Assembly: GCA_012270965.1 (NCBI GenBank)
Contig: JAAXHJ010000044.1
Span: 18,311-82,310 of the forward strand
Length of the DNA: 64,000 bases
Direction of reading: 5' to 3'
From: Candidatus Palauibacter poriticola
GTDB lineage: Bacteria; Gemmatimonadota; Gemmatimonadetes; Palauibacterales; Palauibacteraceae
Numbering within the stretch: position 1 is the stretch's first letter; the number at the start of each line of letters is the position of its first letter. This document shows positions 7,583 to 64,000 of the stretch, one piece after another. Made by a program: the position numbers and the translations under genes. Under the pieces are notes generated by a model, which was given only the letters and a program-made list of their open reading frames with translations, was not told the origin of the DNA and did no database searches.

Positions 7583-9811
<2,229 letters not shown>

Positions 9812-62016: not shown

Positions 62017-62392
62017 CCAGGTCTGAATCGCCTCCAGCAGTCCGTGGAAAGACCCCGCGTCAGCGCCGTGAGCCGTGAAGTGCTCGCCCGGGGTCTTGCC
62101 GCGGGCTGCCAGGGTTCCGACTGCGGAGATGGCTGTTCACCTCGTACTGGACGTCAGCGGGGGAGAGCGACGCCGGACCGCCGCGGCGAGCGGGCCGTGA
62201 TGGTGGGCGCGCCGTCGAGCCGGTCGTGACGTTAGGCGCGCCGTCGAGCCGCCGTCAACGAGACGGGACCGGCAACGAGACGGGACCGGCGTGGGGACCT
62301 CCGCGGGCGGGCACACTTTGGCGCGAGGGACGGCCCGCGTACCTTCCCCACGATGCGGGCGACGGCCCGCGCACGACCCCCTGTCCACTTCG

Positions 62393-64000
62393 TTGTTTGG
62401 GATCCCGCTCTTGAACCAGGACCAGCCGGAACCCGCGGCGCGCACGGCCCCACCGGCGGCGGAAGCGTTCGAGACCCTCTCGGGGGCGATCGAGCGGGGG
62501 CGCCACCTCGCGCTCATTGCCGCCGAGGGAGCGGGTCTCGCTTCGCTCTACGCGGCGGCGGCCGTGCGGGACCTCGCCGCCGGCGAGGCGGGGGGACGCG
62601 CCTTCGTGCTTACCGCGACCGTGGACCGCGCGCGGCGCTGCGCGGCGCGCATGCATGCCGAGGCCCGCGCCGCCGGGCACGGGGTCGTCGTCGTGCCGGG
62701 CGCCGCCGCCGGGGCGGTCGCGCGGGCTCCGATCCTCGTTGGTCCGCCGGCCTCGCTGCTGGAGGGGGTGCGAAGGGGCGACATCCCGGCGGGGGCGCTT
62801 TGCACCCTGGTCCTCGATGACGTGCGTGCGCTGGAGCCGGCGCGGGCCGCCGTCGAGGCCGTGGTGCAGGCTTCGGGCGAGGGGGCCCGCCGGATCGCGA
62901 CCACCCACGCCCGGGATGCGGCGTTCGACGAGCTGATCGGGCGCTGGCTGCCGCGCGCGCGCCGGTGGCCGAACGAACTGTTCGCCGAGCTGCGGGCCGG
63001 GGAGCCGGAGGCGGGCCGGGCGGCGGCTACTCCGATCGCGGTCGCGAGCCGGGCGACGCGCGAGGGCCGGCTCGCTCGCCTGGCCGAGTTGCTTCACGAC
63101 ATCGCGGGGCGAACCTCGGACGAACGGCACGCGCCGGGGGCCGGAGGGGCTGCCGCCGTCAGCGTCGAGACCGCCCCCCGCGCGGTCGCCGCCGTGCGCG
63201 CCGCGCTCTCGCTGGCCGGGCTGCACGTCGTCGCGGCCGAGGCAGCCGGCCCGGCCGAGACCGACACCCGTGCGGCCGAGACCGACGGGGGTGCGGCGGT
63301 GCGGGTCGGGGCGTGGGGCGAGGTCGACGCCGCCGCCCACGCCATCGCGTTCGAGCTGCCGCCCGTGCCGGGACCGCTCGCCCGCACGGCGGCCGCCGCG
63401 GAGCGCTGCTACGCCATCGTCGACTCCCTGCATGAGCGGCAGCTCGAGCTGACCGCGAGGCGAGCCGGACTGCGGGTCGTACGCCTGGCCGAGCCCGCCG
63501 AGCCCGCGCTCATGGACGACGTGGCCGCCTTCCGGGCCCGCGTCGCCCACGCGCTCGAGCAGCAGGATCTCGCGAGCGGCACGCTCCTCCTCGCCCCTCT
63601 CATCCGGGAACACGGCGCCGCGCGCGTGGCGGCCGCCCTCGCCGGACTCCTCCGGATGGCGGACCGACCCTCCCCGACCGCCGGCGAGACGGCCCCGGCC
63701 GACGCCAGGCGCGTGCCCCCCGACACCGGCGCGCGGCGCGCCACCCGGCCGACTTGGACCAAGATCTTCGTCGATGTCGGGAAGCGCGACGGCGCGGGCC
63801 CCGGCGATCTCGTCGGCGCGATCACCGGCGAAACACGCGTCGCCGCCGGACAGATCGGGCGCATCGACATCCGGCACAACTTCACCCTCGTCGATGTCGA
63901 TTCGCTGGTCGCCGACGCGATCGTCCGCGGCCTCAACGGAAGCCGGATCAAGGGCCGCCAGGTCGTCGCCCGACCAGCAGGCCTTGGCAAGACCCCGCGT
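62393..64000 (+). CDS. DEAD-box-helicase-like protein with degenerate catalytic motifs and a conserved DbpA-type C-terminal RNA-binding domain. The 3' end runs off the window; the start is uncertain (TTG 62393).
   Basis: Hand translation: ...GRHLALIAAEGAGLASLYAAAAV (motif I lost), ATVDRA (Ia), PPASL (Ib), LVLDDVRAL (II), TTH (III). Helicase-C-like ...VETAPRAVAAVRAALSLAGLHV... Then WTKIFVDVGKRDGAGPGDLVGAITGETRVAAGQIGRIDIRHNFTLVDVDSLVADAIVRGLNGSRIKGRQV. Confidence 0.55.
   Translation, partial: MFGIPLLNQDQPEPAARTAPPAAEAFETLSGAIERGRHLALIAAEGAGLASLYAAAAVRDLAAGEAGGRAFVLTATVDRARRCAARMHAEARAAGHGVVVVPGAAAGAVARAPILVGPPASLLEGVRRGDIPAGALCTLVLDDVRALEPARAAVEAVVQASGEGARRIATTHARDAAFDELIGRWLPRARRWPNELFAELRAGEPEAGRAAATPIAVASRATREGRLARLAELLHDIAGRTSDERHAPGAGGAAAVSVETAPRAVAAVRAALSLAGLHVVAAEAAGPAETDTRAAETDGGAAVRVGAWGEVDAAAHAIAFELPPVPGPLARTAAAAERCYAIVDSLHERQLELTARRAGLRVVRLAEPAEPALMDDVAAFRARVAHALEQQDLASGTLLLAPLIREHGAARVAAALAGLLRMADRPSPTAGETAPADARRVPPDTGARRATRPTWTKIFVDVGKRDGAGPGDLVGAITGETRVAAGQIGRIDIRHNFTLVDVDSLVADAIVRGLNGSRIKGRQVVARPAGLGKTPR

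Follow-up and report, generated by a model that had tools for sequence, protein, structure and literature searches.

Can a DEAD-box protein lose the residues with which it binds and hydrolyses ATP and still be kept by selection? DEAD-box proteins are textbook ATP-driven RNA remodellers, and the question is raised by a gene at the right-hand end of a 64,000-nt stretch of Candidatus Palauibacter poriticola DNA (contig JAAXHJ010000044.1; hereafter the window). The gene occupies positions 62411 to 64021 of the + strand, its first 530 codons (62411–64000) falling within the window, and its product of 535 aa is 100% identical to the public protein P0001 (535 aa). We regard it as very probable that this protein is a catalytically dead derivative of a helicase maintained by selection. 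On balance, and with less assurance, we also favor a more specific reading: the protein would be a functional pseudoenzyme that descends from a dimeric DEAD-box helicase of the DeaD/CshA/Hera type, has lost the use of ATP and is kept as an ATP-independent RNA-binding protein.

The helicase core is hidden from routine searches. Pfam models DEAD (PF00270) and Helicase_C (PF00271) do not match the single protein sequence even at E ≤ 10; since the Pfam and NCBIfam searches with this sequence returned the RNA-binding domain (RBD) at the C-terminus as the only significant match, a family profile was needed to see the core. Such a profile, made from 83 relatives and searched against PDB, matched DbpA (7pli, E = 1.8e-37), the DeaD N-domain (2.6e-26), CshA (2.7e-25; profile positions 7–401 vs chain positions 12–424, covering both RecA domains and the dimerization region), Mj0669 (7.4e-23) and Hera (7.5e-20). 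In a family-wide Pfam scan the DEAD model was detected in 31 of 83 members (E ≤ 0.01) and Helicase_C in none of the 83. An AlphaFold2 model computed with the family alignment as input (pLDDT 86.7, pTM 0.80) was matched by Foldseek to full-length DbpA in the first place (E = 1.6e-17), followed by CshA and Hera. Pairwise alignment to P0210, a canonical helicase of the same architecture from Myxococcota, is collinear over aa 27–523. The layout of two RecA domains, proposed in a preliminary description of the window made from the letters alone, is thus borne out: homology of both domains to the DEAD-box core is confirmed, being visible at the level of profile and predicted structure only.

Five parts are predicted in order: RecA1, RecA2 in reduced form, a dimerization (DD) segment like that of DeaD/Hera, a flexible linker and a DbpA-type RBD (all coordinates refer to the + strand unless stated otherwise). 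The RecA1-like domain (aa 18–196, 62462–62998) holds motifs I, Ia, Ib, II and III in degenerate form and lacks a Q motif; in the RecA2-like domain (aa 207–360, 63029–63490) motifs IV, V and VI are unrecognizable and the loops of V and VI carry deletions. The DD segment (aa 361–420, 63491–63670) is supported by the match to PF25399 (DeaD_dimer), by the CshA alignment and by three helices in the AlphaFold2 model (residues 365–384, 387–401 and 403–418). The PF25399 match has an E-value of 0.002, under the cut-off of that model, and 35 of 83 family members match at E ≤ 0.01; the core of the segment, LLLAPLxxEHGAARVAAALAGLLR, is strongly conserved. The linker (aa 421–445, 63671–63745) has pLDDT below 50 at aa 424–435. 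The RBD (aa 446–522, 63746–63976), of RNA recognition motif (RRM)-like type, includes the invariant GPGDLVGAITGE.

The preliminary description had recognized a DbpA-type C-terminus, and this part stands: PF03880 matches the single sequence with E = 7.6e-22 and 77.6 bits (cut-off 25.6) at residues 458–527 of the open reading frame (ORF), that is, residues 452–521 of P0001. PF03880 was detected in all 83 family members, and the domain aligns with the RBDs of Escherichia coli DbpA, Bacillus subtilis YxiN and E. coli DeaD. To call the whole protein DbpA-like and to credit it with retained binding of an rRNA hairpin went too far. PF03880 is also found in DeaD and Hera, without the hairpin-92 specificity of DbpA (PMC3695512, PMC7566566); the score against the NCBIfam DbpA equivalog (NF008744/PRK11776) is 53.9 bits, vs a cut-off of 524; and the RBD does not directly follow RecA2, from which it is separated by the linker and the three-helix DD-like segment of ∼60 aa. 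The order of core, dimerization domain and RBD found here is that of the dimeric DeaD/CshA/Hera-type helicases, whose layout is RecA1-RecA2-DD-RBD (PMC11850223, PMC3695512). Sequence and model thus suggest an architecture nearer to DeaD/CshA/Hera than to DbpA and point to DeaD/Hera ancestry.

Every motif of the ancestral ATPase is damaged. Motif assignments were made by pairwise alignment to P0210 and agreed with the family-profile alignments to DbpA and DeaD. The Q motif is missing, only 17 residues preceding the core. The canonical GTGKT/GSGKT of motif I is replaced by GAGLA, PTRELA of motif Ia by ATVDRA, TPGR of motif Ib by PPAS, DEAD of motif II by DDVR and SAT of motif III by THA or DAA (depending on the alignment). 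Further on, the motif IVa helix has given way to a disordered, variable, repeat-bearing insert (aa 276–296), TDVAARGLD of motif V reads VGAWG-EVD and HRVGRTGRAG of motif VI reads --LARTAAAA; the last two changes include deletions, and all arginines of motif VI are gone. No motif was found intact on profile alignment. The substitutions listed in the preliminary description were all real; some of its strings were one residue out of register, and the list did not extend to the damage in RecA2.

Two pieces of the former active site persist: the P-loop's glycine scaffold and the leading Asp of motif II. In the motif I remnant AAEGAGLAS (aa 37–45, 62519–62545; located by alignments to DbpA, DeaD and P0210), A37, G40 and G42 are retained, while Leu43 replaces the Walker A Lys and Ala44 the Thr. 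The motif II remnant DDVR (aa 136–139, 62816–62827) has kept the first Asp and lost the catalytic Glu. A motif census was made over the 278 family sequences that span both motif I and motif II. D136 is retained in 238 of the 278 and Glu is found at position 137 in four; the Walker A Lys is present in 47 sequences, 12 of them with Ser/Thr as well, and four have the DEAD Glu. An intact Walker A motif and the DEAD Glu never occur together (0 of 278). From these losses we infer that ATPase activity is absent. The main conserved feature of the family that canonical helicases do not have is the motif LPRARRWPxELF at the end of RecA1 (LPRARRWPNELF in this protein, aa 180–191, 62948–62983), whose counterpart in canonical helicases by alignment is the ‘..dP..v.v’ segment; no variation is seen at R182 and P187, and A183, R184, W186 and F191 are conserved in at least 90% of members.

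The insert that stands in place of the motif IVa (QxxR) helix (63236–63298) has low pLDDT, no secondary structure and low column occupancy across the family. Inside it lies an in-frame 21-nt tandem duplication (63252–63272 and 63273–63293, encoding AETDTRA/AETDGGA). Orthologues such as P0007 contain longer forms of this acidic repeat, so that expansion of the repeat seems to be how the insert lengthens.

We estimated the ratio of non-synonymous to synonymous substitution rates (dN/dS) by the pairwise NG86 method between orthologues. The values were 0.28–0.39 against ten close orthologues, with a median of 0.36 over 12 pairs. By domain, the RBD was the most constrained (0.17), followed by RecA1 (0.24), the DD segment (0.32), RecA2 (0.40–0.46) and the linkers (0.56–0.97, with 0.56 for the linker ahead of the RBD). 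For the same pairs, neighboring genes gave 0.11–0.15 (symporter, SerA, SerC, SSF transporter) and 0.20 (P-type ATPase). All 15 of the closer orthologue ORFs extracted run uninterrupted to their stop codons (503–543 codons). The whole folded protein is under purifying selection, which is strongest on the RBD and clear on the motif-dead RecA1. The preliminary description had asked about conservation in relatives, where relaxed selection would have spoken for a pseudogene; the orthologues are syntenic and, in many genomes, full-length, with dN/dS below 1. A helicase fold, loss of catalytic residues and purifying selection are the three marks of a pseudohelicase, and this classification is well supported here at the level of sequence and model. 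The pseudohelicase proposed in the preliminary description has therefore held up, as a DEAD-box derivative that no longer has the residues to bind and hydrolyse ATP but is under selection, on the evidence of the profile alignment, dN/dS below 1 in all domains and phylum-wide synteny.

Identification of the coding strand and of the start codon deserves care, as the GC content of the region is 73–80%. An antisense ORF of 540 aa at 62255–63877 (− strand) is a shadow ORF of the kind common at very high GC, with nothing independent to support it; it illustrates how easily long ORFs arise at 75–80% GC, and ORF length alone is therefore no proof of coding. The + frame was identified as coding because of homology, synteny and dN/dS below 1. 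This frame, which holds position 62393, is open from a stop near 62198 through the end of the window. The preliminary description had placed the start at TTG 62393 and had left the region upstream to be checked; the frame does extend back to the stop near 62198, and the start lies at a different codon. The true start is almost certainly TTG 62411, because P0001 begins there (N-terminus MNQDQPEP) and this codon is conserved among orthologues: when the upstream regions of 12 orthologous loci are aligned, hardly any variation is seen at TTG 62411 or in the GGGATCCCGCnC just ahead of it, the start being conserved in the 11 orthologous loci. TTG 62393 is present in this genome only and absent from the other 11 of the 12 regions. 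A start at TTG 62393 or farther upstream (the open frame begins at 62201) was ruled out, as only TTG 62411 is conserved. The sequence past position 64000 had likewise been left to be checked; the ORF closes six codons beyond the window, where GLGKTP is followed by RQRREP and a stop (read in stretch L001).

How far does the family reach? A first search found 87 relatives with identities from 100% down to 32%, and all sources that name an organism say Gemmatimonadota. In a scan of one genome per species, relatives were encoded in at least 433 stretches; the best 80 of these are labeled Gemmatimonadota or have no organism label, except for one metagenome-assembled contig assigned to Akkermansiaceae (L048). 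That contig holds a typical gene of the subfamily to which the Palauibacter gene belongs and is probably a binning error rather than a case of horizontal transfer. An exhaustive profile search yielded 720 cluster representatives at E ≤ 1e-30. Of the 149 proteins that were put in a table, namely 145 from the top 150 together with P0001 and three already known members of the family, one (P0210) had canonical motifs.

Three degenerate subfamilies were found among the tabulated proteins: (a) the RARRWPxELF group, which includes the gene described here; (b) a group that has retained the Q motif (PTPLQ) and has DGxx where DEAD would be; and (c) a group marked by LPHD.../AWAD. Gemmatimonadaceae and Longimicrobiales, both of Gemmatimonadota, are the source of subfamilies b and c, which are carried by the cultivable Gemmatimonas and Gemmatirosa. 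A spread of the family beyond this phylum was considered and set aside, all three subfamilies tracing to Gemmatimonadota where the organism is named. Decay is graded: deep-branching members of subfamily a retain GSGKE, PTREAA and GRPSRLL (P0061 is a deep-branching member with GSGKE), and the Palauibacter clade, to which the window belongs, has the most eroded motifs. The catalytic Glu and motif VI are gone in essentially all members examined, and the Walker A Lys is also gone in many. One subfamily-a gene from Gemmatimonadota bin741 (CP070670.1; L072, 5710–7509) contains a DEAD box (ICVDEADLC) together with the Walker A sequence GSGHE; it is possibly an intermediate or a reversion.

The gene order, which is SerA-like dehydrogenase, SerC-like aminotransferase, divergently oriented Na/Ala symporter, pseudohelicase, (HU) and K+ channel, is kept down to ∼38% identity, and in the Palauibacter clade the family is single-copy and syntenic. 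An HU-like gene (Bac_DNA_binding) lies directly downstream, on the opposite strand, of members of subfamilies a and b (L003, 7562–7831; L084, 7612–7896; L086, 7955–8242); this adjacency, seen for many members of both subfamilies, suggests that a and b occupy one and the same locus by ancestry. In the Palauibacter clade no HU gene is found at this position. In Longimicrobiales SMAG_U2027 two subfamily-b copies are located on separate contigs (L070 and L077), which could reflect paralogy or strain heterogeneity. Canonical RhlE-like DEAD-box genes with intact motifs were found 0.2–5 kb from subfamily-b genes, on the opposite strand, in four stretches from Gemmatimonadaceae and Longimicrobiales (L071, L073, L075 and L076), and the pairing may be recurrent. 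Coexistence of the two kinds of genes indicates that the phylum has working DEAD-box helicases, to which the dead family is additional. Elsewhere in the window no canonical DEAD-box gene was found; a phmmer search with P0210 matched the pseudohelicase ORF alone. Database names of family members are ‘DbpA RNA binding domain-containing protein’ (NCBI) and, for many, ‘ATP-dependent RNA helicase DeaD’ (JGI); the latter name is probably wrong.

What could such a protein do? We predict RNA binding, dimerization and a role as scaffold or placeholder. The RRM-like C-terminal RBD would tether the protein to structured RNA. Ancestry makes rRNA or intermediates of ribosome assembly the first candidates, as rRNA or RNA in general is the substrate of DbpA, YxiN, DeaD and Hera (PMC3695512, PMC7566566). 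The conserved helical segment would make the protein a dimer. The dead, well-folded RecA core would act as a static scaffold, clamp or placeholder in place of a motor, and this role would be carried by family-specific surfaces such as RARRWPxELF and the retained glycine loop. A role in rRNA or ribosome biogenesis is proposed tentatively, with the balance tipping somewhat against it, the link to the ribosome coming from ancestry alone.

Several observations weigh against the picture of a retained RNA-binding pseudoenzyme. The dN/dS of the gene is about three times that of most neighboring genes (0.11–0.21), which implies relaxed constraint, especially in RecA2. Motifs Ia, Ib, IV and V, through which a helicase core touches RNA, are likewise degenerate in the Palauibacter clade, which makes clamping of RNA by the core doubtful; RNA binding may rest on the RBD, whose specificity cannot be read from its sequence. 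The neighbors, namely the amino-acid symporter, the K+ channel and the SerA/SerC-like genes, give no RNA-related clue at the loci with conserved synteny. Finally, the ATPase-dead, binding-competent DbpA mutant R331A is dominant-negative in E. coli, where it blocks 50S assembly (PMC2770675, PMC2248767). Merely to keep the ancestral binding site without a means of release would thus probably be harmful, and a naturally dead version must have an altered target, affinity or release mechanism.

Among other explanations, the one that survives best, though we consider it unlikely, is that the protein regulates or antagonizes an active helicase, either by forming heterodimers with a DeaD/CshA-type paralogue through the DD segment or by competing with it for its RNA site, and so modulates helicase activity in the way that pseudokinases modulate kinases. 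Strong conservation of the dimerization-like segment would fit this idea, as would the presence in the phylum of canonical DEAD-box genes, some of them in the vicinity of subfamily-b members; the dominant-negative effect of dead DbpA in E. coli shows that competition is physically possible (PMC2770675, PMC2248767). However, these canonical neighbors are of the RhlE kind; the match between them and the family profile is confined to the two RecA domains, with DD and RBD undetected, and no active DD-containing partner was identified in the genomes examined. In the Palauibacter clade, moreover, the single-copy, syntenic gene is not paired with a helicase gene.

Rather less probable is a scaffold of a non-ribosomal complex (degradosome-like or a stress-response ribonucleoprotein), in which the RecA core would serve as a platform for protein–protein contacts and the RBD would recruit mRNA or small RNA. 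Docking on RNases via RecA domains is common for bacterial DEAD-box proteins, the structural matches include SrmB RecA2 bound to a regulator of ribonuclease activity, and the family has specific conserved surface motifs outside the old active site. Still, no linked partner gene is seen in the neighborhoods, and the proposal is purely inferential.

A residual enzyme that binds or hydrolyses NTP with relocated or non-canonical residues is very improbable. It would account for the P-loop scaffold (A37, G40, G42) and the first motif II Asp being kept in at least ∼85–90% of relatives and for GSGK(E/T) in deep-branching members, and some annotated pseudoenzymes have proved to be active (PMC10211241). 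Against it, Walker A Lys/Thr, catalytic Glu, motif III, the Q motif and the motif VI arginines are all gone, the V and VI loops are shortened, and, as said above, the census found no sequence with both Walker A and the DEAD Glu intact. A decaying pseudogene or an open-frame artefact of high GC, as chance long ORFs like the shadow ORF, the elevated dN/dS and a C-terminal tail rewritten by a repeat insertion might suggest, is for practical purposes refuted by intact full-length orthologues in many genomes, deep synteny, dN/dS of 0.17–0.46 in all folded domains, a confident AlphaFold2 fold from the family alignment and conservation of the TTG start and of blocks upstream of it.

The first of these upstream blocks, CTTTGG-N-GCGTACCTT (62316–62345), consists of near-invariant columns in the alignment of the 12 orthologous upstream regions. 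It is a possible promoter, with TTTGGC (62317–62322) as −35 and TACCTT (62340–62345) as −10 hexamer separated by a 17-nt spacer; scans of the upstream region for a sigma-70 consensus and for terminators found nothing. A second near-invariant block (62226–62260) reads GTGACGTTAG..CCGTCAACG in the 12 loci. The two blocks may be regulatory sites shared by the divergent symporter and pseudohelicase genes. A small conserved hairpin, GCGGGCGACGGCCCGC (62355–62370), is located in the presumed 5′ leader, ∼40 nt ahead of the TTG start; it is GC-rich, its stem bases are conserved in the orthologue alignment and the orthologues have a GAAG loop. An Rfam match to Guanidine-II (mini-ykkC) at 62322–62370 (20.6 bits vs gathering threshold of 32, E = 0.087) was judged to be a chance match, because the orthologues do not conserve the first of its hairpins and the putative promoter lies partly within it.

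Some features of the region are specific to the window and absent from the orthologues. These are tandem duplications in the intergenic region, at 62252–62285 (two copies of the 17-nt unit CCG(T/G)CAACGAGACGGGA) and at about 62208–62251 (a duplicated GCGCGCCGTCGAGCCG). In addition, a 59-nt direct repeat with 85% identity brackets the gene in this genome only; one copy is at 62034–62092, the other begins at 63974–64000 and continues in L001 to position 9622. The first copy sits in a 75-nt in-frame insertion among the N-terminal codons of the divergent Na/Ala symporter gene, with an inverted repeat (AAGACCCCG..CGGGGTCTT) within; this insertion is absent from the 11 orthologous loci. The second copy supplies a lineage-specific C-terminal tail of the pseudohelicase (from 63977 on), while the orthologues end with VVARLDRGAR and a stop. 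The repeat and insertion look like a small REP/MITE-like element (a repetitive extragenic palindrome or miniature inverted-repeat transposable element) or a recombination scar. In an 11-mer search for flanking repeats the matches did not exceed chance, and only the 59-nt pair was meaningful. The downstream K+ channel gene (L001, 9567–10166 region) encodes 160 aa with TrkA_N and TrkA_C only and without a pore domain, vs 331–347 aa in relatives; together with the rewritten C-terminus of the pseudohelicase, the shortened channel gene suggests a local deletion or rearrangement.

Comparison with known systems places the protein among DEAD-box relatives and, by its state, among the pseudohelicases. 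Thermus thermophilus Hera, Geobacillus/Bacillus CshA and E. coli DeaD (CsdA) share with it the order of core, DD and RRM-like RBD. It differs from them in the loss of all ATPase motifs and in its shortened RecA2; its DD is predicted from sequence and model, and the long Arg-rich C-terminal tail of Hera has no counterpart. E. coli DbpA and B. subtilis YxiN, the 23S rRNA helicases specific for hairpin 92, have a homologous RBD (PF03880), and DbpA is the best full-length match in PDB by both sequence and fold. However, DbpA and YxiN are monomers and active ATPases with the RBD straight after RecA2, unlike this protein with its DD-like segment and dead motifs. The RhlE-like helicases of Gemmatimonadota (e.g. 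L073, 7676–9106, − strand) share the phylum and the two-RecA core; all their motifs are intact (GTGKT, PTRELA, TPGR, DEAD, SAT, HRIGRTGR), and the family profile detected neither DD nor RBD in them.

To our knowledge, very few pseudohelicases have been validated, namely Utp25 in yeast and PriA in Deinococcus. In the searchable literature we found no bacterial DEAD-box pseudohelicase and no description of this Gemmatimonadota family. A remark from 2011 (‘data not shown’) mentions a Gemmatimonas aurantiaca gene with a DbpA RBD and without DEAD and Helicase_C domains (PMC3093544). What appears to be new is a family of catalytically dead DEAD-box derivatives, found here in Gemmatimonadota only and not described as such. 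Its graded series of decay offers a tractable system to learn what a helicase fold and an RNA-targeting domain can do without ATP, and the family could help to address how a ‘dead DbpA’ escapes the dominant-negative effect by which 50S assembly is blocked in E. coli. The Palauibacter clade, which consists of sponge symbionts, is among the members with the Walker A Lys lost.

The Deinococcus radiodurans PriA pseudohelicase is likewise a bacterial superfamily 2 (SF2) relative that has lost its motifs in a lineage-specific manner and is still retained (PMC4504706); it is, unlike the protein described here, a DNA replication-restart protein from another SF2 family. The closest in concept, and a precedent for the reading favored here, is yeast Utp25/Def of the small-subunit processome, in which a helicase fold has likewise been kept and catalysis lost: its fold is that of a DEAD-box protein, its motifs are dispensable or degenerate, and it serves as a structural factor of ribosome assembly (PMC9539457). 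Utp25, however, is a eukaryotic protein that arose independently and is extended at the N-terminus instead of carrying a C-terminal RRM, a specific relationship between the two being undetectable. More speculatively, and in our view doubtfully, an ancestral DeaD/Hera-type helicase with a DbpA RBD might have been replaced throughout Gemmatimonadota by ATPase-dead descendants (at least three subfamilies), which would bind RNA as dimers, independently of ATP, and serve in the biogenesis of ribosomes or in quality control of RNA. If so, this replacement would be a natural experiment indicating that RBD-guided helicase function can be performed without ATP turnover, and a bacterial counterpart of the eukaryotic pseudohelicase assembly factors.

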